A stretch of DNA of 64,000 nucleotides from Candidatus Omnitrophota bacterium (GCA_043820815.1 JBDRDJ010000028.1:22307-86306), one strand, 5' to 3'; shown: positions 1,107 through 60,899, numbered from the stretch's first letter. A program made the numbers and translations. Notes: generated by a model from the sequence alone, not told the origin.

Positions 1107-1252
1107 ATTTCTCTCTGAATATAAGAAGCTGCAAAACTAATCTAATACAGGGAGTTTACATTTTCTAAAAATCCCGCCCATTTCTTTGATCAGGATTATT
1201 TTCTTTAGGATATGTGTTAATAAACGGATTCTGTTTATTTTTTAAAAATAGC

Positions 1253-1281
1253 TTGCATATTTTGCATAATTATGGTATATA
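1253..1281 (+). promoter_or_regulatory. sigma-70-type promoter candidate for the RRM protein gene
   Basis: TTGCAT (1253-1258), 17-nt spacer, TGg-TATATA (1273-1281, extended -10). This implies a 5' leader of about 245 nt before ATG 1535. Confidence 0.4.
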
Positions 1282-1534
1282 TGATAGATAACGTATAGTT
1301 TCCTGCTTTAGCCTCACGTCTAATGTTAGTTAACACGTTATAAGATGGGGTTTATTATATTAGCCAGAGGTTAAATTTTGGCATTACTAAACCTTCATAA
1401 AAAGCTCATTGAAAAAAAGGAAGAATCGGCCAGGGGTTAAAAATGGTATGTTGCTAAAAATCCTGGCTAAAGAGGGATGCGGTGTTACGCTGATTGGAAT
1501 TTTCTGTGAGAGCATTCATTAGGAGAAAAAAGAG

Positions 1535-1867
1535 ATGGAAGAACAAAAGAAATTGTACATTGGAAATTTAAGTTATGACACCAGCGAAAGTGACCTGAGA
1601 GGGTTCATCGAAGAGAAAGGGGTAACCCCAACAGAAATAAAAATTATTTCTGATAAATATACTGGAAAATCAAAAGGTTTTGGTTTTGCAGAGTTTGAAA
1701 CTGAGGAACAGGCTCAAGCCGCTATCGATGCTTTAAACGAGCAAGAATTCAGCGGCAGAAAGTTAACCGTAAACAAAGCAAAGAAAATGCAGCCCAGAAA
1801 AGACAACTTTGGCGGCAGTGGCGGTGGCGGCGGACGTAACTCAGGTTATCGTAATAACAGATATTAA
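1535..1867 (+). CDS. RRM-type RNA-binding protein with Gly-rich tail
   Basis: RNP-2 LYIGNL and RNP-1 KGFGFAEF motifs, with a C-terminal GGSGGGGGRNSGYRNNRY tail. RBS AGGAGAAAAAAGAG lies upstream. Confidence 0.85.
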   Translation: MEEQKKLYIGNLSYDTSESDLRGFIEEKGVTPTEIKIISDKYTGKSKGFGFAEFETEEQAQAAIDALNEQEFSGRKLTVNKAKKMQPRKDNFGGSGGGGGRNSGYRNNRY

Positions 1868-2375: not shown

Positions 2376-2495
2376 TTTTAAATAAAGCTAAAAAGAATAT
2401 TAAAATGATAACAATTTTCCAAATAACCGTAACTTTACATATTTGTTTGAACCTTAAGTGTAAAGTTAGGGAACTTTGCTTTTAATCTTTCCCGT

Positions 2496-2993
2496 ATGCC
2501 AGTAAAACAAGAACCAATAAATATCAAGATAAGAATTTCTAAACAGAAGCTGTATCTTTGTAAGAGCAAAAGGATGATTAAGCAATACTCAATATCAACA
2601 TCAAGATACGGCATTGGCAATAAGCTCAACAGCAATAAAACACCATTTGGCCTGCACAGAATTTACAGCAAAATCGGCAAAAATGCGTTGATAGGAGCTA
2701 TTTTTAAAAAGAGGCGCTTCAGGGGAAAATATTCCAAGATATATAAGAAGTCAGCTCCAGATAGAACTGATTTTATTACAACACGCATCATAAGGTTAGA
2801 AGGCTTAGAGAAGGGCATTAATAAGGGTATGGGCATTGATTCTTTAGAGAGGTGTATTTATATTCATGGCACCCCTAATGAAGCTTTAATCGGTAAGCCG
2901 GTATCTTGCGGATGCATAAGATTGAAAAACAAAGATATAATCGAGTTGTTCAATTTAGTAAAAAGAGGCAATTTAGTTAAAATTGAAAGGTAG
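2496..2993 (+). CDS. L,D-transpeptidase catalytic (YkuD) domain protein
   Basis: Active-site motif HGTPNEALIGKPVSCGCIRL (His ... Cys-x-Arg). No signal peptide is seen at the N-terminus. Confidence 0.75.
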   Translation: MPVKQEPINIKIRISKQKLYLCKSKRMIKQYSISTSRYGIGNKLNSNKTPFGLHRIYSKIGKNALIGAIFKKRRFRGKYSKIYKKSAPDRTDFITTRIIRLEGLEKGINKGMGIDSLERCIYIHGTPNEALIGKPVSCGCIRLKNKDIIELFNLVKRGNLVKIER

Positions 2994-3120
2994 ATGTGTA
3001 AGCAACGGGATTGGTTTTCGAATCTGATAATGATTTTTTTAACGGGAACCAGCTGATCATTTCTTCCTGCCGGCCTCAAAATAAACAATTAAAAAGGCGA
3101 TAATGCTGGAGATGTATTCT

Positions 3121-3221
3121 TGGACATTCCCCAAAATTAATATATTGTTTTTCATAACGAGTTTAACCATAAACAGTTAAGAAAAATAATATCTGAATTC
3201 CTGTATTTTGGGGAATGTCCA
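3121..3221. repeat. perfect 17-bp inverted repeat pair, part of a MITE-like repeat-dense region
   Basis: TGGACATTCCCCAAAAT (3121-3137) and its exact reverse complement (3205-3221) are separated by 67 nt. A third copy lies at 23273-23289. Confidence 0.6.
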
Positions 3222-3308
3222 TAATCTCAGTAATCTTTCCCCAATCTCAGTAATCAATTGGGAGTTTCTTAGATTTCAAAAATGGGGAAACTCCCGATGT
3301 ATTCTGTT

Positions 3309-3336
3309 TTACTTTCTACTTTAGATATGGTACAAT
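3309..3336 (+). promoter_or_regulatory. sigma-70-type promoter candidate for the sigma-54 activator gene
   Basis: TTACTT, 16-nt spacer, TGg-TACAAT (extended -10, 3328-3336). Confidence 0.4.
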
Positions 3337-3433
3337 ATTTTTTCTTTTTGGCTTAGGCAGCAAGAGAGCGATGAGCCACAGTCTTATTAGAGATGTCCGA
3401 TTTAAACCCTAACGCATTCCCCGCAATAAAGTT

Positions 3434-4813
3434 ATGGTAAGCGTCAATAAACAACCTGTTATTTTAGTTGTGGATGATGACCCTTCAGTTTTAGAGGCAT
3501 TCAAGGTTATTTTAGACGAGCAATTTAAGATTTTGACTGCTCAGAGCGGAAAGAGCGCATTGGATACGGTTTCTAAAGAACCGGTTGATCTGGTTTTCTT
3601 AGACATTGCCATGCCCGATATAGACGGCATGAAGATTCTGCGTACGATGAAGGAATTGGATGCTAATTTATCAATAATTATCGCAACCGCAACCGACAGC
3701 GCGAAAATGGCTGTTGAGGCAATGCGGCTGGGAGCCTGTAATTATATCACAAAGCCTTTTGACCCTGATGAAGTGGTAGCTGTGGCCCAGAAGGCCCTGG
3801 AACGGGAAGAACTGCTGAAAGAAGTTGCTTATTTTCGGTCTCAAAGAGAAGAAATAAAGTTTGATAATATTGTGGGCAAAAGCAAAAGCATGGAAGAGAT
3901 ATACGGCATTATCGAAAAAGTCGGCAAAAACGATACCACCATTATTATTACCGGCGAAAGCGGAACAGGAAAAGAATTAATCGCCCAAGCAATACACTGG
4001 AACGGCCTGAGGCAGCAGAAACCGTTTATTCCCGTTAATTGCGCAAGTATTCCTGAAAACTTGCTTGAAAGCGAATTTTTCGGCTACGAAAAAGGCGCTT
4101 TTACCGATGCCGCTTCTCAGAAATTAGGCATGCTGGAACTGGCTGACCAAGGCACGCTGTTTATGGATGAGATCTCAAGCCTCAAGTTAGATATGCAGGC
4201 AAAGCTTCTGCGCGCTTTGGAAGAGAAGGAAATTAGAAGGGTTGGCGGAACCAAGATAGTTAAGGTAGATGTACGCATTATCTGCGCTGCTAACGTTGAC
4301 TTAAAAGCTTTGGCACAGGAAGGAAAGTTTCGCTATGACCTATATTATCGCTTGAATGTCGTGCCTATACATTTGCCGTCACTTAGAGAACGCAGGGAGG
4401 ATATCCCTTTGCTGGTCGCGCATTTCTTAAGAAACTTTAACAAGGCGTTCAGAAAAGAGATAGAAGGGTTTACGGATGATTCTTTAGAGTACTTAATTAA
4501 TTATGATTGGCCGGGTAATATCCGGGAGCTTAAGAATGTTATTGAGCGTTTGGTTGCCTTAAAGGATAAAGGAGTTATTACATCTAAGGAACTGCCTTTT
4601 GATATTTTTATAAAAAATAAGCTGATAAAGAGCTTCCGGGCCGAAGGCGGGCTCAAAGAAGCACGCCGGGATTTCGAGAAACAATACATAGAAGCTGTGT
4701 TAGAAAGAGTCGGCGGCAATCAAATTAAAGCGTCTAAGATATTGAGTATTCACCGTAATGCACTTTTTAACAAGATAAAGAGTTTAGGGATAGGAGGGCG
4801 AAGATGCGGCTAA
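3434..4813 (+). CDS. sigma-54-dependent response regulator (NtrC family enhancer-binding protein)
   Basis: N-terminal receiver (VVDDDPS ... FLDIAMPDIDG). AAA+ domain with GESGTGKE Walker A and the GAFTDA sigma-54 contact motif. C-terminal Fis-type HTH (QIKASKILSIHRNALFNKI). Confidence 0.9.
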   Translation: MVSVNKQPVILVVDDDPSVLEAFKVILDEQFKILTAQSGKSALDTVSKEPVDLVFLDIAMPDIDGMKILRTMKELDANLSIIIATATDSAKMAVEAMRLGACNYITKPFDPDEVVAVAQKALEREELLKEVAYFRSQREEIKFDNIVGKSKSMEEIYGIIEKVGKNDTTIIITGESGTGKELIAQAIHWNGLRQQKPFIPVNCASIPENLLESEFFGYEKGAFTDAASQKLGMLELADQGTLFMDEISSLKLDMQAKLLRALEEKEIRRVGGTKIVKVDVRIICAANVDLKALAQEGKFRYDLYYRLNVVPIHLPSLRERREDIPLLVAHFLRNFNKAFRKEIEGFTDDSLEYLINYDWPGNIRELKNVIERLVALKDKGVITSKELPFDIFIKNKLIKSFRAEGGLKEARRDFEKQYIEAVLERVGGNQIKASKILSIHRNALFNKIKSLGIGGRRCG

Positions 4814-6651
4814 TCAGATTTATATCTTTTTTTGCATTGTTAGTCACTATAGCCGTTGGCGCAGAGGCGGCGGCTGGAGAAACCAGCACAATTGAATTAC
4901 AGCCTATAGTTATAACGCCAAGAAGAACACCTGTTGGGCTAAGCGCAACAACAGAGAACGTAATCGTAATCAATGAAGAAGAAATAAGCCGGCTGCCTGC
5001 AAGGGACTTAGGCGAAGTTTTGGGGTATACCGCAGGTGTTGATATTGATCCTCGCCAGGGATTTGGCAGGGCAACATCAATCAGTATCCAGGGCTCTGAC
5101 TCCCGCCATGTAAGGGTAATGATTGACGGCATACCTTTAAATAACCAGGCTTCCGGCGAGGTTGACCCTTCCCGCTACTCAATTGAGAACGCAAAAAGGA
5201 TAGAAGTTATTAAAGGGTCAGCTTCGAGTATTTGGGGTTCAAGCTTAGGCGGAGTGATTAATATTATTACCAAGGATACGGGAGATACTTTAATTCCCAA
5301 GGGCAATTACACAACCTCTTTTGCAGAATTCGGCACTAAGAAAGACACTCTTGACTTGTCGGGTAAATTAGGGCAATTGGGTTATTATGTTTTCGGGAGC
5401 TTGATGGAATCAGGGGGCAAGGATTCAAGGGATGATGTTATTGAGAAAAAAACATTCGGCAAGCTATCATACGATTTTAAGGATGCCGGCAAATTAACCG
5501 CTTCTTTCGGTTATAACAAAGCAGATGTAAACAGCGGTGTTTGGCCTGATGGAACCTGGTGGGGCCAGCCTTACCGCATACATTACGGCAAGGCCGGCTG
5601 GGAGGCTGAATTAGGCGCAACAGCCGTGAGCGCTGAATTAAAACATTCCCGTCAGGATATTATTACAGAAATTTACCTTGATGCCGCTGATCAAGAGCCG
5701 TTTTCTACGATTAAATCCAAAGATGCGCTTTATCAGCTAAGTTTAAATTCAACCACTCATATTGGAAAAGATGACCTATTAGTTTTAGGGTTCGATTCCG
5801 ATTGGGATAATTTAAAATCTACTTATCTTACCAAAGCAAAGGGTCTAAATGTACAGGCTCCTTATGCTAATTATGCGTTGAAATTAGAGCCATGGGATTT
5901 TAATTTTGGATTACGTTATGACCATACCAGTGAATTTGGAGATGAACTTAGCCCTTCTTTGGGTGCGATATACCATGTTAAAAGCATTCCCGATACTCTT
6001 GTGCGGGCAGGAGTTTCCCGGGCATTTAATGCTCCGCCTCTTCTTTGGAAGTACTATGACTTCAGCCTAAGCGGCTTGACTATTAACCCTGATATTACAC
6101 CTGAACGTGCCCGGGTGTATGAGCTTGGATTGGAAAGTATGCCGCTACCTGAATTATGGCTTAAGCTTTCTTTATACAGAGCGGATGTGTCTGATGCTAT
6201 CAGCAATGCCCAAAGCGGGAGCGGCCAGTGGTATAAAAAGAACTTTGAGAAGTTCCGGAGGCAAGGGGCAGAGTTACAGTTTAATGCCGGCCTTTTTGGC
6301 GGGTTAAGTTTATTTGGAGGCGGCGCTTTTAACGATATTGAAGATAGAGCTACAAGACAAACCGTAGAAGGCGGAGGTAAACCCCGCTATAGTTATGATT
6401 TAGGGCTGTCATACAACAGTGAAAACGGGCTGAATGTGTTAGTTCGCGGTTATTATAATTACTGGAACGAACCGGCATCAAGCGAGCCTAATGATAGAAA
6501 AATGCTTTGTGACATAAAGATTTCTCAAAAATTCAAAAACGCAGATTTTTTCTTAAATGTACACAATTTTACTAATAGCAAATACTGGAGAGATTATTAC
6601 TTTCCTGTTCCCCAGAGGTATTTTGAGGGAGGAGTCACTTTTAAATGGTAA
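4804..6651 (+). CDS. TonB-dependent outer-membrane receptor
   Basis: Signal peptide, TonB-box-like IELQPIVITP, plug-domain motifs (IEVIKGSASSIWGS), and a beta-barrel ending in an aromatic residue (VTFKW). The start overlaps the activator stop by 10 nt. Confidence 0.85.
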   Translation: MRLIRFISFFALLVTIAVGAEAAAGETSTIELQPIVITPRRTPVGLSATTENVIVINEEEISRLPARDLGEVLGYTAGVDIDPRQGFGRATSISIQGSDSRHVRVMIDGIPLNNQASGEVDPSRYSIENAKRIEVIKGSASSIWGSSLGGVINIITKDTGDTLIPKGNYTTSFAEFGTKKDTLDLSGKLGQLGYYVFGSLMESGGKDSRDDVIEKKTFGKLSYDFKDAGKLTASFGYNKADVNSGVWPDGTWWGQPYRIHYGKAGWEAELGATAVSAELKHSRQDIITEIYLDAADQEPFSTIKSKDALYQLSLNSTTHIGKDDLLVLGFDSDWDNLKSTYLTKAKGLNVQAPYANYALKLEPWDFNFGLRYDHTSEFGDELSPSLGAIYHVKSIPDTLVRAGVSRAFNAPPLLWKYYDFSLSGLTINPDITPERARVYELGLESMPLPELWLKLSLYRADVSDAISNAQSGSGQWYKKNFEKFRRQGAELQFNAGLFGGLSLFGGGAFNDIEDRATRQTVEGGGKPRYSYDLGLSYNSENGLNVLVRGYYNYWNEPASSEPNDRKMLCDIKISQKFKNADFFLNVHNFTNSKYWRDYYFPVPQRYFEGGVTFKW

Positions 6652-6690
6652 AAAGAGTGCACAATATAATGAATTGCACTCTTTTGTGTG
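6651..6690 (+). terminator. terminator hairpin after the TonB-dependent receptor
   Basis: AAAAGAGTGCA (6651-6661) pairs with TGCACTCTTTT (6675-6685), an 11-bp stem with a 13-nt loop. Confidence 0.55.
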
Positions 6691-6854
6691 CATAAAATCC
6701 GCCGCATAAAACCATCTGCGCAAGTTGTTTCGCAAATTGAAAAATAATAAATTAGTTTATTCATGCATCCGCATATCAATGATTGTCTTTGTTTTTACAG
6801 CCCGCCGCTTTAAAAGTTTCCCTAAAAAATTCCAAAATGCAAAAATGTAATTAA

Positions 6855-6870
6855 TGGCACGATACTTGCT
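6855..6870 (+). promoter_or_regulatory. sigma-54 (-24/-12) promoter
   Basis: TGGCACGATACTTGCT matches the consensus TGGCACG-N4-TTGCW at every defined position. It lies 20 nt upstream of the signal-peptide ATG at 6890. Confidence 0.6.
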
Positions 6871-6889
6871 TAATCAAAGATGTAACCGG

Positions 6890-8491
6890 ATGAACAAGAG
6901 AACGCTATTTATTTTATTAACCATTTTGCTTTTAGTTATGTTACTCGTTGGTATTAAAAAACGTTCGCATGTGCTCACTTCTTCTAATTTGTATGGCGGT
7001 ACTCTTGTATGGGGAGCGGTCAATAAGCCTACAATAATAAACCCGATTTTAACCACTCAGAGCATTTCTATGGGGGTTATTAATTTAATATTTAACGGCT
7101 TGGTTAGAATTAATTCAAAAGGGGAAATAGAGCCTGATTTGGCACAGTCTTGGGATATTTCCCAGGACGGCCTTGTGTATACCTTTCATTTAAGGGAAGG
7201 CATAAAGTTTCACGACGGCAGAGAGTGTACTGCTTATGATGTAAAATTTACTTATGATAAAATCGTTGATCCGGATATTAATTCGCCCTTTAAATCTTTT
7301 TACCAATTAGTCAGGGAATTTAAGGCGGTTGATAAATTAACTTTTCAGGCAGCCTTAAGAAAACCTTTGTTTTCTTTTATTTACAGGTTTACCAGAGAGA
7401 TAGTTCCTAAGCATATCCTGGAAAATAAGGATTTGAGCAGATGTGCATTTAATTATCATCCTATAGGAACAGGGCCGTTTAAGTTTAAAGAGTGGAAACA
7501 AGACGGCCGGATTGTCCTTGATTATAATCCTGATTATTACGAGGGAAGGCCGTATTTAGACAGGGTTATCGCTAAAACTTATACTGATTCCCGCAATCTC
7601 TGGGCGGCTCTTATGCGCGGCGAAGTGGATTTTGTGCTTTATATAGGGCGGCAAGATTATGAAATTGTAAGGGATGACCCGGCATTTAAAGCTTATAACT
7701 ATTTTTTTGATTTCTATTATACCTTAATTTACAACCTTAACGATCCCGTGCTGGCCGATAAAAGGGTAAGATACGCACTTGCTTATGGCATAGACAGAAA
7801 GGAGTTGATTGAGAAAGTGGCTTTCGGCTATGGTTTAGAATGTAACGGCCCTTTTTATCCGGATTCTTTAGGTTTTAATCCCGATGTTGAGCCTTTTAAA
7901 TATAGCCCCCAGCGCTCACGCCAGCTATTAGCCCAGGCAGGCTGGGAGGATACTGACGGTGATGGTATTTTGGGAAAAGAAGCAAAAGAGTTGGAGTTGA
8001 GCATTTTGGTTGACGAGAGAAATGACATCTACAAAAATATAATAATGGTTTTAAGGCAGCAGCTTCAGAGAATTGGAGTAAAGACACAAGTACAGCTATA
8101 CAACGACGACAGTGAACTTACCGATAAGTTTCTTGCCCAAAACAAGCCGCAGGCGCATTTAAAAATGCTTATGGCAGGGATGGACCCTGATCAGCAGGCG
8201 CCGCACGATTGGTGTTCCGAAATGCCCCGTGGCCTCGGTAAATTGTGGATATATAGAAACGATGAAGTAAACAGGCTTTTTATGACAGGGAAAGTCAGTC
8301 GTGATAAAGAACAACGGGATTTGATTTATCGAAGAATTCACCGCCTTATTTATGAAGACCAGCCGGCATGTTTTTTATATTTCCCATTTATTTTTCACGC
8401 AGTTTCCAATAAGTTTGAAAATACAGATGATTTCTTTACGGTGAATATGCCTTTTTATACAATAAAAGATTGGCGCCTTAAATCTAATTAA
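6890..8491 (+). CDS. periplasmic solute-binding protein, family 5 (OppA/NikA/DppA-like)
   Basis: The N-terminus MNKRTLFILLTILLLVMLLV is a signal or anchor sequence. Family-5 hallmarks follow (GGTLVWG ... PDLAQSWDISQDGLVYTFHLREGIKFHDG). The track start at 6854 falls inside the sigma-54 promoter, so I moved the start to the in-frame ATG at 6890. Confidence 0.8.
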   Translation: MNKRTLFILLTILLLVMLLVGIKKRSHVLTSSNLYGGTLVWGAVNKPTIINPILTTQSISMGVINLIFNGLVRINSKGEIEPDLAQSWDISQDGLVYTFHLREGIKFHDGRECTAYDVKFTYDKIVDPDINSPFKSFYQLVREFKAVDKLTFQAALRKPLFSFIYRFTREIVPKHILENKDLSRCAFNYHPIGTGPFKFKEWKQDGRIVLDYNPDYYEGRPYLDRVIAKTYTDSRNLWAALMRGEVDFVLYIGRQDYEIVRDDPAFKAYNYFFDFYYTLIYNLNDPVLADKRVRYALAYGIDRKELIEKVAFGYGLECNGPFYPDSLGFNPDVEPFKYSPQRSRQLLAQAGWEDTDGDGILGKEAKELELSILVDERNDIYKNIIMVLRQQLQRIGVKTQVQLYNDDSELTDKFLAQNKPQAHLKMLMAGMDPDQQAPHDWCSEMPRGLGKLWIYRNDEVNRLFMTGKVSRDKEQRDLIYRRIHRLIYEDQPACFLYFPFIFHAVSNKFENTDDFFTVNMPFYTIKDWRLKSN

Positions 8492-8509
8492 AGGAAGGAG
8501 GTGAGAAAG

Positions 8510-8608
8510 ATGAAAGTTATTAAAAAAGGCTCGGATAAGATTTTTAACGGTGTAGATCCCAAAGGCTGCTGCTGGCCGGCAGGGACTATCGGTGCACGCC
8601 CCTACTAA
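8510..8608 (+). CDS. 32-aa candidate RiPP precursor peptide (MKVIKKGSDKIFNGVDPKGCCWPAGTIGARPY)
   Basis: ATG 8510 is preceded by GGAGGTGA (8497-8504) with a 5-nt spacer, and TAA is at 8606-8608. It sits immediately upstream of the rSAM/SPASM gene. It is too short for the ORF track. Confidence 0.6.
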   Translation: MKVIKKGSDKIFNGVDPKGCCWPAGTIGARPY

Positions 8609-8762
8609 TGGTTGAGGGAGGGTAATTAAAATATCCTGAAAAAGAGATGTTTTGCAGTAAGTTTATGGGCGGCCGACCAGAACTTGCTGCAACCATAGTT
8701 GTAAAAGCCACCGATTTATCAACATCAGATAACGGATTGGATCATATTGTTAGGAGCGGGAA

Positions 8763-10127
8763 ATGAAACTGTCGAAATTCAATTTATTGGTTAAAGATTA
8801 TCCTGTCAAAGGCGAATACCTTTTGTTTAATACACGCACTCAGGCGTTGATTACCGTAACTAATAAATTTAAGGAGTTTTTAGACAGCCTTGAAGCCTCA
8901 AACGTTACGGTTTACGGTATGGCGATAAAAGAAAAAATAAATGCATTGAAAGAAAACGGAATTGTAGTTGAGGACGAAAAGGAAGACCAGGATAAATTAA
9001 GTGATTTTTTTCGGCAGCTAAAATATGAATCAAATGTCTTGCCTTTTGAGGCGACAATTCTAACCACTTACAATTGTAATTTTAAATGCGTGTATTGTTT
9101 TGAAGAATCGGTCAGGGATAATATATTCTTAGATATCAAGACCAGCGAGGCAATAATAAACTGGCTAAAGAGAAGAATTCAGCAGAGAGGCTATAAACGG
9201 ATTTATCTGGTTTATTACGGAGGAGAGCCCTTGCTTAATGTCAAGCCGGTTTACGATATATCCTGGCATATGCAGGCATGGGCTGATAAGAATGGTGTTG
9301 AATTCGGTTTCGGTATAATTACCAACGGAAGCCTTGTAAATCCGGAGTTAATTGATAAATTGTTAACCGTAGGCTTAAAAGAAATCCGTGTCAGTTTAGA
9401 CGGCGACAGAAATGCACACAATAAGAAAAGGCCGTTTTCTGATGGACGGCCTACCTTTGACCTTATTGTTAATAATATAAAAAGAGTTATGGGAAAAGTC
9501 AATGTGGGAATTTCGGGGAATTTTGACCGCAAGAACTACAAGAGTATCTACAAACTTTTAGATTATTTAGAAGAACAGGGAATCTTGCGTAAATTACACA
9601 GGATTAATTTTGCACCCTTGACTCCCCGGTTCGGGCCAAAGAATAATCCCGGAGCAGTTGAATTAAAAGAATGCTTTTCTTTTGTGGGAAAAGAGGGATT
9701 ATTTAAGGAAGTGACAGCTATTACAAAAGAGCTAATGCGGCGCAGGCTGACATTGACTACCGGTTTATCGGTTAATATCTGCCCTTTGATTATGCAGGAC
9801 GGAGGTATTACCATTGACCCCGGGGGCGTAATTTACAAATGTAACGCTCTGGTAGGTTATCGGGAATTTTCCATCGGTAATGTCGCCGATGAGGGGTTTA
9901 ACGAAAAGTTTAGTGAATTCTTAAATATTGACGCCTGGAATAAATGCCCACGTGATTGCCCTTATATTCCCATGTGCCAGGGGGGATGCAGATTTTTTTC
10001 CTATTTAGAGAATAAGAATTTTTGTGCGTTATCCTGTAAAAGGGATTATTTTGATAAGATTACTCCCGAATTGATTAAGCTGGAGTACGATAAACTTACA
10101 AACGACTATCAAAGCAGTTTGCAATGA
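8763..10127 (+). CDS. radical SAM/SPASM-domain peptide-modifying enzyme with N-terminal RRE-like domain
   Basis: CNFKCVYC is the CX3CX2C radical SAM motif. The C-terminal SPASM signature is present (CPLIMQDGGITIDPGGVIYKC ... CPRDCPYIPMCQGGC ... C). About 95 aa precede the rSAM core, typical of a PqqD-like recognition element. Confidence 0.9.
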   Translation: MKLSKFNLLVKDYPVKGEYLLFNTRTQALITVTNKFKEFLDSLEASNVTVYGMAIKEKINALKENGIVVEDEKEDQDKLSDFFRQLKYESNVLPFEATILTTYNCNFKCVYCFEESVRDNIFLDIKTSEAIINWLKRRIQQRGYKRIYLVYYGGEPLLNVKPVYDISWHMQAWADKNGVEFGFGIITNGSLVNPELIDKLLTVGLKEIRVSLDGDRNAHNKKRPFSDGRPTFDLIVNNIKRVMGKVNVGISGNFDRKNYKSIYKLLDYLEEQGILRKLHRINFAPLTPRFGPKNNPGAVELKECFSFVGKEGLFKEVTAITKELMRRRLTLTTGLSVNICPLIMQDGGITIDPGGVIYKCNALVGYREFSIGNVADEGFNEKFSEFLNIDAWNKCPRDCPYIPMCQGGCRFFSYLENKNFCALSCKRDYFDKITPELIKLEYDKLTNDYQSSLQ

Positions 10128-11875
10128 AGAGAGCAAGAGAGCTTTTATCTATTTTACGGCCGCATAGGAAAAAGATCATTTTCGCCGGCATATCGATTCT
10201 TGCTGTCAACTTAACGGGGTTGGCTTTTCCCTGGGGTATTAAGATTATCATTGATGAAGTTCTGGTTAAAAAAGATTTCTTTTTGCTAAATAGCTTGGCA
10301 GGGGCACTTGTTCTGATTTTCTTGATACAGTTCTATTGCGGATTTATGCGCGAATACTTAGTTTCTTCTGTGGGTGAAAATGTAGTTTGTGAGTTGCGTA
10401 ACAGGCTCTACTGGCACATAGAGAGATTATCGGTGAAATATATAGAGGATACGCCTATAGGTAAGATTATATCGGGAGTTATCGGCGATGTTGAGAGTAT
10501 ACGGAATTTCCTGTTTGGCGGGCTTATAGATTTTATTTACTCTTTCCTTAACGTATTTTTCGTCCTTATCATCTTGCTGTTTCTGGATTGGAAGCTAACC
10601 CTGGTTTCTTTAATATTTTTGCCCGCGTTCGGGCTCACCTTCTTTAAGCTTACCCCCCGCCTGCAGAAGAAGTTTGGGGCAGTGAGGGAAAAATACGCGG
10701 AGTTAACCGCACACTTAAACGAAGTATGTATTGGTATCCGCGTTGTTTGCGGTTTTGGCAAAGAAAGATACGAGGCAGACAGGTTTAATTCTACTCAGAG
10801 CAAAATTCTCAAAAACTCTATGGCAGGCCACAGGCTGACGATAGGGTTATGGATGGGGTCAGAGTTAGTCAGTTCTTTAGGGCTTGTTACCATTATATGG
10901 TTTGGAACCCGGGCCGTATTTTCCGGGCGTATAACCCCGGGGACATTGATGGCGTTTTATTCCTATACAGGAATGCTTTTTTTCCCCGTAATTAAGATGA
11001 CGATTATTAACAATTTTTATCAAGAAGCTGCTGTTGCAATGGAGCGGATTGATAGAATTTTAGCCGAAGAGCCGGCAGTAAAAGAATCTCTAAATCCCGT
11101 TAAGATTAATAAGGTAAAAGGAAATGTAATATTTGACGGGGTAAGTTTCAGCTACGATGGAAAAAGGGAAGTTCTCTCTGGAATTGACATCGGCGTAAAA
11201 GCATCCCAAACCATAGCCCTAGTGGGTAAAAGCGGCGCCGGTAAAACCACCATGATAAATTTGCTACTTAGATTTTACGATCCCGATAAAGGAGGAATTT
11301 TTATTGACGGATACAACATCTGCGATTTGGATTTGAATTCGTACCGTTCTAGTATTGCTATGGTTCTTCAGGATGATTACCTCTTTAACTTAAGCGTTAG
11401 AGAGAACATTCTCTATGGCAAGCCGCAGGCTTCTTTTGATGAAGTTGTCAGAGCCGCCTGTTTAGCAAACGCTCATCAGTTTATTACTGAATTAGCCGAT
11501 GGTTACGATACAGAGATAGGCGAAGGAGGGGTTAAACTTTCTTTCGGGCAAAGACAAAGGATTTCTATCTCCCGGGCAATAATAAGAGACCCGGCCATTT
11601 TAATTCTGGATGAGGCGACATCGTGCGTAGATTCAGAAACTGAACGCCTTATCATCGAAGGAGCTTATAAAAATGTGATATGCGGCCGTACCACGTTCAT
11701 AATTGCCCATAGGCTTTCAGCAATAACGTATGCTGATAGAATTATTTTTATCGAAGGCGGCAGAATAATTGAGGAGGGTGCTCACCAGCACCTTTTAGAT
11801 AAAAAAGGCCGATATTGGAAAATGTGGACAGAACAAACCCGATATAGCTTTACATCGAAGGTGCCGGCTGCATAA
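10124..11875 (+). CDS. ABC exporter, fused permease/ATPase (MsbA/type I exporter fold)
   Basis: A six-helix TMD is followed by an NBD with GKSGAGKTT (Walker A), LSFGQRQR (signature) and ILILDEATS (Walker B). An ATGA overlap with the rSAM stop suggests translational coupling. There is no N-terminal C39 peptidase domain. Confidence 0.9.
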   Translation: MKRARELLSILRPHRKKIIFAGISILAVNLTGLAFPWGIKIIIDEVLVKKDFFLLNSLAGALVLIFLIQFYCGFMREYLVSSVGENVVCELRNRLYWHIERLSVKYIEDTPIGKIISGVIGDVESIRNFLFGGLIDFIYSFLNVFFVLIILLFLDWKLTLVSLIFLPAFGLTFFKLTPRLQKKFGAVREKYAELTAHLNEVCIGIRVVCGFGKERYEADRFNSTQSKILKNSMAGHRLTIGLWMGSELVSSLGLVTIIWFGTRAVFSGRITPGTLMAFYSYTGMLFFPVIKMTIINNFYQEAAVAMERIDRILAEEPAVKESLNPVKINKVKGNVIFDGVSFSYDGKREVLSGIDIGVKASQTIALVGKSGAGKTTMINLLLRFYDPDKGGIFIDGYNICDLDLNSYRSSIAMVLQDDYLFNLSVRENILYGKPQASFDEVVRAACLANAHQFITELADGYDTEIGEGGVKLSFGQRQRISISRAIIRDPAILILDEATSCVDSETERLIIEGAYKNVICGRTTFIIAHRLSAITYADRIIFIEGGRIIEEGAHQHLLDKKGRYWKMWTEQTRYSFTSKVPAA

Positions 11876-52200: not shown

Positions 52201-54603
52201 GTGATGAAGCCAAAATCAATACAGAACATTCTGAAATACAGGCCGGTTGTGCTTGACGGTGCAACAGGAACAGAGTTGTATAAAAGAGGCATGCCTTGCG
52301 GGATTTGTCCTGAAATTTGGGCACTTGATAACTACAGTATTGTTTCATCCTTGCAGCGTGAATATGCCGATTTAGGGGCGGATGTTGTATTTGCACCGAC
52401 TTTCGGCGCTAACCGCATTAAGCTGAAGAATTACAAATTAGATAAAGTAGAAGAGATAAACAAGAATTGTGCATTGCTTTCGCGCAAAGCTGTAGGGAAA
52501 AATACCCTTGTTGGGGGTGATATCGGCCCAACAGGTAAATTTATCGAACCTTTCGGCAGCCTCTCTTTTGACGAGGCTGTCGATATTTTTAAGGAACAGG
52601 CCCGCGGCCTGCTAAAAGGCGGAGTCGACTTTTTTATTATCGAAACCATGATTGATATACAGGAGGCGCGTGCAGCGTTACTGGCGGTAAAAGAGCTGAC
52701 AGATAAATTTGTCATGGTAAGCATGACGTTTGAGGCTGACGGCCGTACATTAAACGGAAATTGCCCTGAAGCAGCGGTTGTTACCCTTCAAGGGCTAGGT
52801 GCAAACGCAGTAGGGTGTAATTGCTCTGTGGGCCCGCAAGCCATGGTTTCGATTATTAAGAGGATGAAACCTTATTCAAAAGTCCCTCTGCTGGCAAAGC
52901 CTAATGCCGGCATGCCAAAAGTAATGAAATCTAAAACAGTTTTCCCTATGGGGGCCAAAGAATTTGCATCATTCGCAGCGCCCATTGTATCATCGGGAGC
53001 CGGCTTAATCGGAGGCTGCTGCGGAACTACCCCCCGGCATATCTCTCTGCTAAAAAGGGCGGTTTCCCGCAAGAAGCCAAAAAAAGTTTTTCCTGAATTC
53101 TTAAGCGTGTTAAGCTCAGCAAGCAGCTTTTTACCTTTAGACCGTTCAGCTGCCTTAGGCATTGTAGGCGAATGCATTAACCCAACGGGTAAGCCCCGCC
53201 TTAGGAAAGAGCTTTCTAAAAGGAATTTTTCTTATGTCCGGGAAATTGCTGTTGAGCAAGAGAAAAATAACGCATGCCTGCTTGATGTTAATGTGGCTTC
53301 CGCCGCAGGGGATGAGGAATCGTTACTTTGCGAAGCTGTTAAGAGTATAGCGCAAATAACCGGACTGCCTCTTGTCATTGATTCTTCTAACATAAGTGCG
53401 GTTGAGAATGCTTTAAGGGTTTATCCGGGCAGGGCCTTAATTAATTCTATCCCCTGGCAAAAAGGAAAAACCGATAAATTACTTAAAATTGCCGCTAAGT
53501 ACGGAGCAATGTTTATTGTGCTTCCCATTGATCACAAAAACGTTCCCTTAACCAGCACCCAACGTCAAGAAGTAGCCCGGAAAATACTCGCTAAAGCAAA
53601 AGATTACGGATTAAATAAAGAGGACGCAGTTGTTGATGCTTTGGTGATGGCTCTTTCAACCAGCCATGATTCGGCAAAAGAAACATTGAGTATGATTGAA
53701 TGGTGTTCCCGCAAGCTGGGTATGTTGACAATAATCGGGCTTTCGAATGTTTCTTTTGGTTTGCCCGGGCGGCAGTGGTTGAATGCGGCTTTTATGGCAG
53801 CAGCTTACTCAAGGGGTTTAAGGCTTGCTATAGCTGACCCTTCTCAGTACGAGGTTACAGCCATAAAAACAGCATTAAATGCAGCGTATGGGTTAGACCC
53901 GGATGCTAAAGAATATATTGATTTTTTTAGAAAAAGTTCCTTAGATAAAGGCGCGGCTTCAGCGAATAAAGATGCAAAGCAAGGTTTATTCGATGCTATT
54001 TTGCATGGAGACCGCCAAAGGGTTAATTATTTTATAGATAAAGCCATAGCCCAAAATCATTCTCCCTCGGATCTTGTAAGCAATACGATGATACCTGCCA
54101 TTAAGAGGGTAGGCGAGCTGTATGAGCAGAGATCATATTTTCTTCCTCAGCTAATCGCAAGCGCAGAAACCACCAAAAGAGCCTTTTTGCATTTAAAGCC
54201 GCTTCTTTCAAAAAAAGAGAGAGATAAAGATCATTTTATCTGCCTCATGGCGACTGTTGAGGGGGATGTCCATGATATCGGTAAGAATATAGTTGGGTTG
54301 ATTCTTGGCAACCACGGTTTCAAAATAGTTGATATGGGTAAAGATGTAAGTGCTAATAAGATTGTCAGTGAAGCTAAGCGCCTGGGCGCTCATTTGGTCG
54401 GCCTTTCTGCGCTTATGACTACAACTATGCTTAAGATGAATGACGTCGTTAAGCTTGCCAAGAAAGAAGGCCTTAAATGTAAATTTATCGTAGGAGGAGC
54501 CGCGGTTAGTTCTCATTACGCTGATTCAATTGGTGCAGAATACGCAAAAGATGCAATTGAGGCGGTTAAGGTTGCAAAGAGGATGATTGGGAAGAAGGGC
54601 TAA
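52201..54603 (+). CDS. metH: cobalamin-dependent methionine synthase (Hcy, pterin and B12 modules; no activation module)
   Basis: Homocysteine S-methyltransferase N-terminus (VLDGATGTEL, GGCCGTTP), pterin-binding module (GLSNVSFGLPGR), and the B12 motif DVHDIGKN with GLSALMTTT. Confidence 0.9.
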   Translation: MMKPKSIQNILKYRPVVLDGATGTELYKRGMPCGICPEIWALDNYSIVSSLQREYADLGADVVFAPTFGANRIKLKNYKLDKVEEINKNCALLSRKAVGKNTLVGGDIGPTGKFIEPFGSLSFDEAVDIFKEQARGLLKGGVDFFIIETMIDIQEARAALLAVKELTDKFVMVSMTFEADGRTLNGNCPEAAVVTLQGLGANAVGCNCSVGPQAMVSIIKRMKPYSKVPLLAKPNAGMPKVMKSKTVFPMGAKEFASFAAPIVSSGAGLIGGCCGTTPRHISLLKRAVSRKKPKKVFPEFLSVLSSASSFLPLDRSAALGIVGECINPTGKPRLRKELSKRNFSYVREIAVEQEKNNACLLDVNVASAAGDEESLLCEAVKSIAQITGLPLVIDSSNISAVENALRVYPGRALINSIPWQKGKTDKLLKIAAKYGAMFIVLPIDHKNVPLTSTQRQEVARKILAKAKDYGLNKEDAVVDALVMALSTSHDSAKETLSMIEWCSRKLGMLTIIGLSNVSFGLPGRQWLNAAFMAAAYSRGLRLAIADPSQYEVTAIKTALNAAYGLDPDAKEYIDFFRKSSLDKGAASANKDAKQGLFDAILHGDRQRVNYFIDKAIAQNHSPSDLVSNTMIPAIKRVGELYEQRSYFLPQLIASAETTKRAFLHLKPLLSKKERDKDHFICLMATVEGDVHDIGKNIVGLILGNHGFKIVDMGKDVSANKIVSEAKRLGAHLVGLSALMTTTMLKMNDVVKLAKKEGLKCKFIVGGAAVSSHYADSIGAEYAKDAIEAVKVAKRMIGKKG

Positions 54604-56494: not shown

Positions 56495-56641
56495 ATTATA
56501 ATCAGGCATCAGACAGAATATAGCCATGATTGATGGTTCAGGGCTGCCCAGCAATGACAAAATCCCAATGGTTAAACGCAATACTCAATACGGGTTTTCG
56601 TTCGTGGCAATTTGTTTTTAATTCGTGATTAAGGAGAGTAA

Positions 56642-59600
56642 ATGATATTATTCGTATGGATGGGGTCTTTTGTTTGTATAGCGATACTTGTTGCTGTATC
56701 TTTGCCTTCCGATAAAGGCCGTATGGAAAAAAAACTAGAAGAAGCCGAGCAATATTCCAAGAAGCAAGCCCAACGCATGCAGAGTAAAGTTTATTCTTTA
56801 AAAGGGCATATGTCCGGCCTTAAGCAGGAACTAAGTGCCGAGAAGGACAATATTATAAGCCTGCAAAATCAACTTAAAGCCGTTCAAGAGAAGGAAGAAG
56901 AGCTTAAGGAAAAATTACGCAAGCATAAAACATGGGTTGATGAGAGCCAGGAGCATGTCGATAAGGCAAAATCCAGCCGCGAAGAACTAAGACAGCAGTT
57001 AATTAGCAAAGAAAAGGAGCTTGAGAATGAGTTTTCCAAGAATGTCGCCTTAACCAGGCAGATCGAAGAAAGCCATAGGCATTTTGATGAATTGGAGAAA
57101 AAGAACGGGCGTTTGCTTGATAATATTATGTCTCTCGAGAAGAAGATAATGGGCTTTGAGTCAAAATTAAAAGAAAATAAAGCTGAGTTGAACAGGCATA
57201 TTGATATAGCCGCGCAGCTTAAGAAAAAGGAAGAAGAGAGTGAATGGGTAGCTAAAGCAGAGTACGTAAAATTAGCTGAACAGTGCAATGAGCTCAAAAA
57301 TAAGCTTGAAACAAGAAATAAAGAATTAGAAATTAAGGAACAGGCGATTAAAGATCTCGATATCGAAAGAATCAGGTTTAAAAACAAACTACGCGGTATA
57401 GGCCTTATGGAGGGTTTAGAGGATCCTTTTGATTCTACGGCTGCTCTTGAAGTGCCCGGGGCCGGGGAGCAGATATCCGCAGATCAGGCAACGAAAGAGG
57501 AAGCTGGGGGGATTGAAGAAGAGCCTAAAGCAAATGATTCGAGTATTACCGAGTCAGAAAAAGAGGATAAACCCGAAGATTTTGAAGGGGTAACGGCCGC
57601 TGAACCTAAGAAACAGGTTAAAGGGAAGCTGCTTGTCCACGAAGTACCTTCCGGTATAGATTTATCGAAAATAAGAAATATAGGAATCATAGCCCATATT
57701 GATGCCGGAAAAACCACTTTAACCGAGAGGATTTTATTTTATACCGGCAAATCTCACAAAATCGGAGAAGTCCATGACGGATGCGCCCAGATGGACTGGA
57801 TGAAACAGGAGCAGGAAAGGGGCATAACAATTACTTCCGCCGCCACCATGTGTCAGTGGAACGGGTATAATGTGAGCATTATCGATACTCCCGGACACGT
57901 TGATTTCACGGTTGAGGTTGAGAGAAGCCTTCGGGTTCTTGACGGGGCTGTTGTTGTTTTTTGTGCAGTATCAGGTGTTGAGGCTCAGTCTGAAACTGTC
58001 TGGCGCCAGTCCGATAAATATAAAGTTCCCAAAATTGCATTTATTAACAAGATGGATAGAGTCGGCGCTAATTATTTCAGTGTGTATAAAGATATTAAGG
58101 AAATGCTCCGGGCCAATGCCGTCCCCATCGAAATACCAATGGGGTCTGAGAGTGAATTTAAAGGGGTTATAGATCTAATTAAAAAGAAGGCTTATTTTTA
58201 TGAAGATGAGTCTTTGGGGAAAGATTTCCGCGAAGAGGAGATTCCGTCTCAATATACGGAGCTGGCCACAGAATATTATGAAATTATGGTTGAAAGAACT
58301 GTTGCTTGTGATGAAAACTTAATGCAGAAATATCTTAAAGCAGAGGATCCGATTACGCCTGAAGAATTGATGGCAGCAATAAGAAAAGGCACGCTTTCTA
58401 ATAAAATAATTCCTGTTCTTTGCGGTTCGGCATTGAAGAATAAAGGTGTTCAAAAATTGCTCGATGCGGTTACTCAATATCTGCCTTCTCCCTTAGATAT
58501 TCCGGCTATTGAGGGCAATCTTGCAGATGATCCTCAGAAAAAGATCCAAAGGCGCCCTGACCTGCATGAACCTTTTTGTGCCCTTGCTTTCAAGGTTCAG
58601 GCTGATGCGCATATAGGAAAGCTTGTTTATCTCAGGGTTTATTCAGGTTGTGCTTTTGCCGGTTCGTATCTCTTTAACGCTACCAAGGGAAAGAAAGAAC
58701 GCATATCAAGGATTGTGCGTATGCATGCTAATCAAAGGGAAAGCCTGAAATATATGTGTGCCGGCGAGATTGTTGCTTGCATTGGATTAAATCACACGGT
58801 AACAGGCAACACTATTTGCGACCCGGAAAACCCGGTAATTTTAGAATCAATAGAATTTCCAACGCCTGTTATTTCGGTAAGCATAACTCCTGCCAGCCGC
58901 TCTGATCAGGATAAATTGAACAAGGCTCTTTTTAAGCTGTCAGAAGAAGATCCCACGTTTTCTGTTGATACCGATTCCGAGAGCGGAGAAATTATCTTAT
59001 CAGGCATGGGAGAACTTCATCTTGAAATTATTGCCGAAAGGCTTAAAGATGAGTTTAAAATTAACGCCGAGATAGGCAAACCAAAAGTTTCCTACAGAGA
59101 AACAATTCAATCTGAAGTGAAACAGGAATATAAGCATGTAAAGCAAACCGGCGGCCACGGCCAATACGGCCACGTAATTATGGAAATTTCGCCAAAGGCA
59201 AGGGGTGAAGGGTTTGAATTTAAGGACAGTGTTACAGGAGGAAGAATACCCAAAAATTACATATCTTCTATTGAAAAAGGCATTATCGAAGCATTAAAGA
59301 AGGGTTCTTTTGCAGGATTTCCCGTTGTTGATATTAATGTAAACTTAATTGACGGATCATTTCATGAGGTTGACTCATCAGACATTGCTTTCAGGTTGGC
59401 TGCAATAGGCTGTTTCAGGGAAGCTATGCTTAAAAGTTCTATTGTATTGCTTGAGCCTTTTATGTCGCTTGAAATTTCTACTCCGGAAGAATATACTAGT
59501 AATATTGTGGGCGATATATGTTCGCGCCGGGGCAGGATAATCAATATGGAGCAGAAAGTAAATCAGAAAATAATATCCGCAGAGGCCCCTTTGACGGAGT

Positions 59601-59743
59601 TATTCGGCTACGTTACCAGTGTCCGGTCTTTAAGCAGCGGCAGGGCAAGCTGTTCCATGGAGTTTAAGAAATATACAGAAGTCCCCCGCGAACTTGCCGA
59701 GAAGATCGCCGAAGAACAAAAAGAAAAACGTGCTAAACCGTAG
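56642..59743 (+). CDS. elongation factor G homologue fused to an N-terminal TM anchor, coiled coil and acidic linker (1033 aa)
   Basis: Residues from about 344 to 1033 form a complete EF-G ([29 protein letters not shown], domain IV HEVDSS). Residues 1-22 are hydrophobic. Residues from about 28 to 250 are heptad-like and Lys/Glu-rich. Residues from about 255 to 330 are acidic low complexity. The whole is a single uninterrupted ORF. Confidence 0.8.
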
Positions 59744-60899
59744 GTTTATAGTCCATATAGACATGGATGCGTTTTTTGCGGCTATTGAACAGCGTGATAA
59801 CCCCTCATATCGTAACAAACCGGTTGTTGTAGGCGCAGACCCAAAAGGCGGCTGCGGACGCGGTGTTGTTTCAACCTGCTCCTATGAAGCGCGCAAGTTT
59901 GGTATTCATTCAGCAATGCCGATTTCAAGCGCTTACAGGCTATGCCCCAAGGCTGTATTTATCCCTCCTTCTATGGATAAATATTGCAGAGTTTCCCATG
60001 AAATTTATACGATATTAAATGATTTCAGCCCCATTGTTGAGCCGGCCGGTATTGATGAGGCTTTTTTAGATATCACAGGAAGCTTTCACTTGTTTGACAC
60101 ACCGCTTGAAACCTGCGAGCTTATTAAATCAAAGATACTTAAACAAACAAAATTAACCTGTTCGGTTGGCCTTGCCCCTACAAAAATGGCGGCAAAAATC
60201 GCCTCTGATTTAGAGAAACCCGATGGATTGGTCATTGTAGCCAAAGAAGGGTTAAATGATTTCTTAAATCCGCTTGATATTGGTAAGCTCTGGGGCCTGG
60301 GCAAGAGAACAAAAGCTATTCTAAATACAAGAGGCATTCATACTGTAGGCGGCCTTGCCCGGAGAAATCCGGTTGAACTTACTGCTTTGCTGGGGAAAAA
60401 CGGTCAGCATCTGTGGCAGCTTGCTCAAGGTATAGATAACAGCCCGGTTTGTAATAGCGAAGAGGTTAAATCTCTAAGTAATGAGCATACATTTAGCGAA
60501 GATACCCGAGATTACAATGAAATAAACGGTGTTTTAATTTCGCTTTGCGAAAAGGTTTCCTGCCGCCTTCGCAATGAGGCGGTTAAGGGCCGCACAATCA
60601 CCTTAAAAATCCGCCTTGAAGGTTTTATGACTTATAGCAGAGCGATGACTCTTTCAAAAGCAACTAATTATGCCGATGTTCTTTATAGGGCGGTAGATAA
60701 GCTTTATAATAATTTTGATAAAAAGAAAAGAAAAATAAGGCTTTTGGGGGTAAAAGTTTCAGGCCTGCTTCCTTCCCTGCAGAGAGACAGTATTTTTGAC
60801 AAGAGCCCGGACGTAAAAAGGGAAAAAGTCCATTCAGCCGTCGATAAAATAAGAGGAAAGTTCGGCGATAACGCTATCAAAAGGGCGGGGATGATTTAG
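59694..60899 (+). CDS. dinB: DNA polymerase IV
   Basis: [20 protein letters not shown]-terminal catalytic motif and the [16 protein letters not shown] block. The true start may be GTG 59730, which would overlap the EF-G stop by 14 nt rather than 50 nt. Confidence 0.9.

Follow-up and report, generated by a model that had tools for sequence, protein, structure and literature searches.

Elongation factor G (EF-G) is among the most conserved and best-studied proteins, and it is treated as a freely diffusing cytosolic factor. The locus analyzed here raises the question of whether an EF-G can also be built into a membrane-anchored protein and what such a protein would do. The window, that is, the whole 64,000-nucleotide (nt) stretch from Candidatus Omnitrophota bacterium (GCA_043820815.1 JBDRDJ010000028.1:22307-86306), is part of a metagenome-assembled genome (MAG) and carries a gene of 1033 amino acids (aa) in which a complete EF-G is preceded, in the same reading frame, by 338 residues comprising a predicted transmembrane (TM) helix, a coiled coil and an acidic linker. 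The gene thus departs from the typical soluble, ~700-aa str-operon form of EF-G. An earlier sequence-only reading of the window, produced by a model, had described this gene as a fused EF-G of new architecture, probably a paralogue. Our analysis confirms that the fusion is real and conserved across Omnitrophota, and it suggests that the product is a membrane-tethered, catalytically intact EF-G.

The fusion is conserved across Omnitrophota

The gene forms a single conserved reading frame with a strong Shine-Dalgarno (SD) sequence at codon 1 and no canonical internal start in four genomes. In the open reading frame (ORF) analysis, the ATG at 56642 was the first start codon past the upstream stop, and no ATG, GTG or TTG was found in the 60 codons preceding the RNIGI motif of the window gene, so that the absence of an in-frame start, noted earlier for 30 codons upstream of the G domain, holds for 60. 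The same interval before the G domain contains no such codon in two further fused loci (L003 and L006), and a single TTG lacking an SD sequence in another one (L004). By our estimate, the chance of 338 stop-free codons in DNA of ~42% GC is roughly 1e-9. A scan for promoters and terminators inside the gene yielded promoter-like matches at chance level only, and other gene callers predict one gene of 1038-1081 aa.

The same architecture was sought in related sequences. A search with the full-length protein recovered at least 119 clusters at 90% identity, with proteins of 943-1081 aa that share the same layout. In most of these clusters 89-100% of the query was aligned, at 50-57% identity; in ~17 of the listed clusters only the EF-G two-thirds aligned, at 63-69% identity. 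The G domain starts 258-392 residues into the protein (median 339) in all listed clusters. These fused sequences span NCBI, JGI, ENA and Logan assemblies, on contigs of up to 599 kb, and include a 1043-aa version from the single-cell amplified genome Candidatus Omnitrophota SAG AM-311-N09 (L006), whose N-terminal module (hereafter N-module) is matched at E=8e-44 by the family hidden Markov model (HMM) described below. No fused copy was found in the IMG/VR scan. Where other phyla show a long open frame ahead of EF-G, the genes have normal starts, and these frames were rejected as chance ORFs of high-GC DNA. Neither the full-text literature searched nor the Atkinson 2015 survey of translational GTPases contains a membrane-anchored or N-terminally extended EF-G, and the architecture appears to be undescribed in the literature. 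To that extent its proposed novelty stands; as a set of sequences it is not new, given that databases already hold more than 100 fused entries, labeled 'elongation factor G' (JGI) or truncated (NCBI).

The extension begins with the hydrophobic N-terminus that had been read from the sequence: its first 21 residues reach a Kyte-Doolittle (KD) 19-mer mean of 2.7. No Lys or Arg precedes the putative helix in the window protein and four occur in the next 20 residues; the corresponding family means are 0.45 and 5.2. Such a positive-inside distribution of charges predicts an N-out/C-in orientation, which would place all downstream parts in the cytoplasm. An N-terminal 19-mer with a KD value of at least 1.6 is present in 107 of 121 family members (median 2.42), and most members below that value look like mis-called starts.

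Downstream of the predicted anchor, AlphaFold2 (AF2), supplied with an alignment of 23 N-modules, models a helix at residues 2-19, a disordered segment at 21-33 and a single helix at 31-201 with predicted local distance difference test (pLDDT) values of 95-98, then a break at 202-204 and another helix at 205-252. For residues 31-201, which fall in the ~220 residues previously called heptad-like, the heptad power at a period of 3.5 was 3.47 vs 0.19±0.19 in shuffled sequences, a value reached by 0 of 2000 shuffles, and one heptad register runs through twelve overlapping 28-residue windows spanning residues 31-198. The register moves from reg2 to reg5 exactly at the helix break. By our own arithmetic (171 residues at ~0.15 nm each), the predicted stalk would be ~25 nm long. 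Since an unbroken heptad pattern points to a parallel oligomer anchored at one end, the stalk is probably oligomeric, as a dimer or a higher assembly.

Three residues of the N-module, W98, F131 (within an EFSKNV motif) and S200, are invariant in alignment A1, and five more (W202, K123, K133, V135 and K194) are at least 90% conserved in it; S200 is invariant, and W202 at least 90% conserved, in both alignments A1 and A2. Judged by its conservation, the N-module is under selection. The stretch that follows, earlier noted as acidic and of low complexity, contains 26% Asp/Glu in the window protein, with a net charge of -14. It has pLDDT values of 26-36 and no secondary structure in the full-length AF2 model, which was used for the linker alone because its mean pLDDT is only 62. 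Across the family the linker measures 35-130 aa, with 28% Asp/Glu and 12% Pro, and it cannot be aligned but is always in frame. These predictions support a description of the N-terminal part as a TM helix, a true coiled coil and a disordered acidic linker.

The N-module also exists as a protein family in its own right. HMMER searches over 1.84 billion representatives at 50% identity detected 142 relatives at E<1e-3, of which 47 fell below 1e-10, and most of them are 210-320 aa long and aligned end to end; a word-indexed search of the N-terminal 343 aa against 5.8 billion proteins gave only two weak matches. We refer to this unnamed family, as set by alignment A2, as the 'SEW-motif' family, defined by a TM helix, a coiled coil with W98, EF(S/T/A)KNV, and ESEW(V/I)xKxE(Y/F). 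The window gene matches the family HMM at 2.4e-75, and its stand-alone and fused relatives do so at 1e-29 to 1e-74; the HMM matched nothing else in the window. Among the loci tested it matches only Omnitrophota genes, with 0 of 79 canonical EF-G loci of other phyla, and on this evidence the N-module is an Omnitrophota-specific family. Two stand-alone forms were found, both encoded by complete genes within contigs (Table 1). One, of ~228 aa, is a hypothetical protein in Candidatus Omnitrophota/Omnitrophica MAGs, and its gene always has a TPR-protein gene on one side and a class I/II aminotransferase gene on the other. The other, of ~305 aa and with an acidic tail, lies between rarA and the gene for a cyclophilin peptidyl-prolyl isomerase (PPIase). 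No Pfam or NCBIfam model reached its cutoff on the N-module, the matches there (SMC, ATG16, RNase Y N-terminus) amounting to coiled-coil noise below threshold, and Foldseek returned 0 matches to it in the PDB. Any assignment to SMC, DivIC/FtsL, EzrA or RNase Y was rejected on these results.

The EF-G module, its paralogues and its surroundings

By every sequence criterion tested, the C-terminal module is a member of the EF-G family and not EF-G2, spdEFG-like or Tet-like. The NCBIfam EF-G equivalog TIGR00484 aligns residues 339-1027 to profile positions 5-690/691 with 1019.1 bits (cutoff 659.4), and the five EF-G domains occur in canonical order over residues 343-1021 according to Pfam, in agreement with the secondary structure of the AF2 model. 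The module aligns end to end with the solved structures of Thermus thermophilus EF-G (1DAR, 859 bits) and Escherichia coli EF-G (826 bits); the EF-G2 structure 1wdt gives 401 bits only. The alternatives tried were all rejected: EF-G2/EF-G-like models scored 491.3 against a cutoff of 890 (NF009377) and 477.9 against 1000 (NF058620), the model of tetracycline ribosomal protection proteins (NF012153) 396.5 against 775, and the RF3, LepA and BipA models likewise remained below their cutoffs. Motifs G1 to G5, including G1 AHIDAGKTT at nt 57692 and G3 DTPGH at nt 57884, and the HEVDSS loop are all intact in the window and invariant across 23 fused homologues, with H908, V910, D911, S912 and S913 of domain IV invariant in alignment A1. 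The sequence-only reading was therefore right to call the EF-G complete, and its sequence indicates a catalytically intact, canonical EF-G. Lys388, in the switch I segment MDWM(K)QEQERG, is present in 98% of 122 fused modules; the position is A or E in two unfused Omnitrophota copies, E in 64 of 95 outgroups, and A in the fused copy of the single-cell genome.

The gene context is non-ribosomal, as had been noted. MetH-like, HMGL-like and KDPG aldolase genes lie upstream and a DinB gene downstream, a PMT-type glycosyltransferase gene is also among the neighbors, and no other translational-GTPase motif was detected in the 64-kb window. None of the eight contexts inspected (the window, L003, L004, L006, L119, L120, L121 and L156) places rpsL, rpsG or tuf next to the fused gene.

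On three contigs (L119, L121 and L156) an unfused EF-G of 697-699 aa adjoins the fused gene (Table 1), which makes the latter a paralogue in some genomes at least; the suspected paralogy is thus borne out in relatives of the window. In L119 and L121, TIGR00484 gives the unfused copies 1094 and 1108 bits and the fused ones 1077 and 1070, which makes all of them members. The fused and unfused proteins on either of these two contigs are 72-73% identical with no gaps, and the two unfused copies are 79% identical to one another. The occurrence of fused and unfused genes as same-strand neighbors suggests an origin by tandem duplication. None of the unfused and fused loci on the three contigs is a str operon, and the unfused copy in L177 also lies outside one. 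Operons of the order S12-S7-EF-G-EF-Tu-S10 are described in complete Omnitrophota chromosomes by a 2026 preprint (10.64898/2026.06.07.730766), the main text of which contains nothing on EF-G copy number.

Fused and unfused Omnitrophota EF-Gs formed one clade in 40 of 40 bootstraps of neighbor-joining (NJ) trees, and when the unfused copies were left out, 22 fused modules were monophyletic with respect to 95 outgroups in 50 of 50. Identity to outgroup EF-Gs was 0.58-0.60 for unfused copies vs a median of 0.566 for fused ones, the window module being the lowest of 124 at 0.542. A metagenome search pattern for an 'Omnitrophota-type unfused EF-G' was discarded: because S457 and K464 also occur outside the Omnitrophota clade, most of what it recovered came from other phyla (58-62% identity), with only L156 and L177 being informative. 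Separately, two metagenome loci (L133 and L139) have S12-S7-EF-G(-EF-Tu) operons whose EF-G carries S457 and K464 and shares 59-62% identity with the unfused copies of Omnitrophota; both are candidate str-operon EF-Gs of this phylum or of a neighboring one.

Several observations concern the surroundings of these genes. When counted from the first TTG, the DinB (Pol IV) ORF at 59694-60899 shares 50 nt with the 3' end of the EF-G gene, and for this reason the true dinB start is probably further in; in L003 and L004, too, a dinB gene follows the fused EF-G at a distance of a few genes, as residual synteny. The MetH-like gene (52201-54603, 800 aa) has Hcy-methyltransferase, pterin-binding and B12-binding domains, and no match to the C-terminal AdoMet reactivation domain. 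Forty-seven of the 51 ORFs of at least 150 aa in the window are on the plus strand and GC skew is positive in 32 of 32 two-kb bins, so the window looks like one long leading-strand stretch. Genes of ~140 aa with a GGQ/RF-1 domain (ArfB-like) occur near EF-G genes in L121 (14211-15277, minus strand), where the gene is just downstream of the fused EF-G and adjoins S21 and RRM-protein genes, and in L177 (2686-3108, minus strand); this may represent a loose translation-rescue neighborhood. In IMG/VR, ~20 contigs classed as viral (L086-L105), some of 270-480 kb, encode a full-length canonical EF-G that is 45-54% identical to the query; such contigs may come from contaminating cells, integrative elements or jumbo phages.

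Table 1. Coordinates of the fused EF-G gene and its parts in the window, and of related loci on other contigs.
Feature	Residues	Coordinates	Strand	Basis
Whole gene, predicted membrane-anchored EF-G, 1033 aa	1-1033	56642..59743 (stop codon 59741-59743)	+	ORF; homologues of 943-1081 aa with the same layout
Shine-Dalgarno AAGGAG		56631-56636	+	Read from the sequence; 5 nt before the ATG at 56642
N-terminal TM helix, predicted N-out/C-in signal anchor	2-21	56645..56704	+	Hydropathy, charge, AF2
Predicted coiled-coil stalk, ~25 nm	31-201	56732..57244	+	AF2 single helix; constant heptad register
Hinge motif ESEW(V/I)xKxE	199-206	57236..57259	+	Conservation; AF2 break; register shift
Predicted second helix	205-252	57254..57397	+	AF2; weaker heptad signal, p=0.035
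Acidic linker, predicted disordered	253-338	57398..57655	+	Composition; low pLDDT
Complete EF-G module	339-1033	57656..59740	+	TIGR00484, 1019 bits; T. thermophilus and E. coli EF-G matches
G domain with G' insertion	343-616	57668..58489	+	PF00009, 2.8e-67
Lys388 codon, switch I	388	57803..57805	+	Only position marking fused copies
Domain II	644-726	58571..58819	+	PF22042, PF03144
Domain III	739-813	58856..59080	+	PF14492, 2.6e-31
Domain IV including HEVDSS loop	814-932	59081..59437	+	PF03764, 1.9e-45
Domain V	935-1021	59444..59704	+	PF00679, 9.2e-27
L119: unfused 697-aa EF-G, directly upstream of fused gene		7579-9672	same strand as fused gene	
L119: fused gene, 1080 aa		10001-13243	same strand as unfused gene	
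L156: unfused 699-aa EF-G, 140-nt spacer to fused gene		2435-4534	same strand as fused gene	
L156: fused gene, 1074 aa		4674-7898	same strand as unfused gene	
L121: unfused 698-aa EF-G, 1.6 kb upstream of fused gene		6307-8403	same strand as fused gene	
L121: fused gene, 1081 aa		10001-13246	same strand as unfused gene	
L114: stand-alone N-module, ~228-aa form		10001-10687		
L115: stand-alone N-module, ~228-aa form		10001-10693		
L117: stand-alone N-module, ~228-aa form		10001-10684		
L001: stand-alone N-module, ~305-aa form		491-1423		
L002: stand-alone N-module, ~305-aa form		695-1606		

Proposed mechanism and competing explanations

The reading that we favor, with a probability of about 0.6, is that the gene encodes an N-out/C-in, probably oligomeric, membrane-tethered EF-G, catalytically intact and working on ribosomes close to the inner membrane. 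We infer its topology, oligomerization, uncleaved state and action on membrane ribosomes; membrane insertion, oligomeric state and activity are predictions. In the mechanism we propose, the charge-free hydrophobic N-terminus would insert as an N-out/C-in signal anchor, and the 171-residue heptad helix would build a parallel coiled-coil stalk of ~25 nm, as a dimer or higher oligomer. The stalk would end at the SEW hinge and pass into the second helix, after which the ~86-aa acidic disordered linker would add several to tens of nm of reach. The tethered EF-G would then bind ribosomes and hydrolyze GTP in translocation and/or recycling dependent on ribosome recycling factor (RRF). Its activity would be limited to a shell of ~30-60 nm under the membrane, a figure obtained by adding the stalk of ~25 nm to our estimates for the linker (~6 nm end-to-end, ~30 nm contour), and membrane-proximal ribosomes would be preferred. 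As to its origin, an Omnitrophota-specific duplicate of the phylum's own EF-G would have gained an Omnitrophota-specific membrane coiled-coil N-module, with at least some genomes retaining an unfused EF-G alongside. Such a design would not be out of place in these bacteria, in which membrane-anchored cytoplasmic-domain architectures are common among long proteins (2026 preprint, 10.64898/2026.06.07.730766).

A number of points weigh against this reading. The TM call derives from hydropathy, charge bias and AF2, and the structure prediction covers the monomer only. The evidence for a second EF-G comes from the L119, L121 and L156 contigs and not from the window's own genome. Once unfused copies were added to the NJ trees, monophyly of the fused modules fell to 12 of 40 and 1 of 100 bootstraps; given this collapse, NJ does not settle the order of duplication and fusion, and it cannot say whether fusion was single or repeated or whether the unfused neighbors were derived from fused genes. 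Apart from K388, the fused module has no sequence signature of functional specialization, and the supplements of two Omnitrophota papers hold neither EF-G entries nor proteomic size evidence. Most Omnitrophota cells measure about 0.2 µm, and in a 200-nm cell a tether of 30-60 nm spans most of the cytoplasm, which may make 'membrane-proximal specialization' a weaker notion. PMC10066038 describes most Omnitrophota as ultra-small; in such cells the tether would reach much of the cytoplasm, and its effect may be enrichment at the membrane more than strict confinement.

A more far-reaching version of the tethered EF-G can be offered tentatively, as a possibility that we do not regard as the probable one. 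Elongation would be organized in two tiers, with soluble EF-G serving bulk translation and the tethered, probably dimeric EF-G on its 25-nm stalk serving ribosomes docked at the inner membrane. These may include ribosomes engaged for hours in inserting or secreting giant (10-150 thousand amino acids, kAA), mostly membrane-anchored proteins. The stand-alone SEW-motif proteins could co-assemble with the stalk and form a sub-membrane scaffold that positions ribosomes.

Among the rival explanations, the one that survives best, unlikely as we consider it, accepts the tether and denies that the protein is a general translocase. It would act in recycling or splitting only, hold ribosomes for hibernation or positioning, or form a reserve released under stress, as is reported of E. 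coli LepA, said to be a sequestered reserve of this kind. The unfused copy present in some genomes would leave room for such a role, the fused-specific Lys lies in switch I, and a probably oligomeric stalk would carry two or more EF-G heads that could cross-link ribosomes. Subfunctionalization of EF-G pairs into translocation and recycling is documented, spdEFG1/2 and mtEFG1/2 being the examples (PMC4342817). Against it, the module scores as a canonical EF-G equivalog with the domain IV tip and all G motifs intact, and its divergence from outgroups is only 1-3 percentage points above that of unfused copies, unlike EF-G2 and spdEFG types.

It is also improbable, in our judgment, that the product is a pro-protein, made as one chain and cleaved in the acidic linker into a soluble EF-G and a separate TM/coiled-coil protein, with the fusion serving co-expression or stoichiometry. 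The independent ~228-aa and ~305-aa genes indicate that the N-module is able to function alone, the exposed disordered linker would be accessible to proteases, and the EF-G module shows almost no fused-specific changes; post-translational cleavage of the linker is compatible with the data, and this too counts against an uncleaved, tethered EF-G. Yet no cleavage motif is conserved in the linker, whose length and sequence are both hypervariable, an unfused EF-G beside the fused gene would make a second soluble route redundant in some genomes, and gene fusions that persist throughout a phylum usually mean physical linkage.

A third possibility, for which we see very little room, is that EF-G is translated independently from an internal ATA at codon 339 (nt 57656) and that the upstream 338 codons are a separate or untranslated frame. 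ATA is permitted as a start codon in translation table 11. An NCBI record (P0003, 'MAG: elongation factor G [Candidatus Omnitrophota bacterium]') annotates exactly this product, a 695-aa EF-G that is 100% identical to the EF-G module of the window and begins at that ATA, with the 338 conserved in-frame codons dropped. No SD sequence precedes the ATA, however, and there are the empty 60-codon interval, the SD sequence at codon 1 and the single gene called by other pipelines, all described above, to set against it. Moreover, indels in the linker leave the upstream frame open and continuous with EF-G in at least 119 clusters; this frame contains invariant residues and belongs to a recognizable protein family. 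The NCBI start is chosen to fit the EF-G model, and this trimming hides the extension; the same trimming has probably affected the whole family across MAGs annotated with the Prokaryotic Genome Annotation Pipeline (PGAP). Last, that two unrelated genes were joined by an assembly, binning or sequencing artefact, an error whose possibility the sequence-only reading had raised and which the MAG origin of the window and the absence of the exact 1033-aa product from the gene index (where the 695-aa product is absent as well) might suggest, has a negligible probability, as the same junction recurs in independent assemblies, drawn from four data sources, as well as in a single-cell genome, and the N-module HMM separates the fused loci from the canonical EF-G loci of other phyla.

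Comparison with known systems and significance

With canonical FusA, the window gene shares residues 339-1033 end to end, including the five domains, G1-G5 and the HEVDSS loop, and it differs in the 338-aa TM/coiled-coil/linker module, the non-str context in eight contexts and Lys388. The keeping of a second EF-G gene beside another is shared with EF-G2/EFGII, spdEFG1/2, gcEFG2 and mitochondrial EFG1/EFG2; those paralogues, in contrast, are soluble proteins of ~700 aa without an added module, and most are far more divergent than the fused/unfused pair described here, at 72-73% identity. A foreign domain on the N-terminus of EF-G has a precedent in the L9-EF-G chimera (PDB 4WPO, 4WQF and related, by their entry names), an artificial crystallography construct whose partner is a ribosomal protein and not a membrane anchor. 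We take 4WPO and the related L9-EF-G entries to be ribosome co-crystals, and by analogy an N-terminal fusion appears compatible with ribosome binding and the EF-G N-terminus appears sterically free.

Closer parallels in design come from non-EF-G proteins, as analogies. RNase Y, composed of a TM helix, a coiled coil and catalytic domains, likewise uses an N-terminal single-pass anchor and a coiled coil to tether a cytoplasmic RNA-handling enzyme, but its catalytic cargo is another one and the stalk of the fused EF-G is much longer; a stand-alone relative of the N-module scored 15 bits against the RNase Y N-terminus (cutoff 454), and no homology is claimed. FtsY, the signal recognition particle (SRP) receptor GTPase of the SIMIBI family, with its acidic A domain, is likewise a GTPase associated with translation and is tied to the membrane through an N-terminal region with a highly acidic, disordered segment; unlike the fused EF-G, it lies outside the translational GTPases, lacks a coiled-coil stalk and serves targeting, not elongation. 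Kinectin and p180 (RRBP1) combine an N-terminal TM anchor with a coiled coil of great length, through which translation components are retained at a membrane, kinectin reportedly anchoring EF-1delta; these proteins belong to the eukaryotic endoplasmic reticulum, are non-homologous, and bind their factor non-covalently rather than being fused to it.

A translation specialist would not expect the finding, which lends itself readily to testing; its whole basis at present is sequence and structure prediction. As a 'Rosetta stone' fusion, it connects an uncharacterized Omnitrophota family of membrane coiled-coil proteins to the ribosome. It also illustrates how model-driven trimming of start sites hid an architecture, and other conserved families could be affected likewise. 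For the biology of these bacteria, the fused gene offers an experimental entry to the organization of translation in ultra-small cells and at membranes. If the two-tier arrangement were true, bacteria would have their first known core elongation factor with a dedicated place in the cell. A membrane-bound EF-G kept by selection throughout the phylum would demonstrate that a core elongation factor can be spatially restricted in bacteria.

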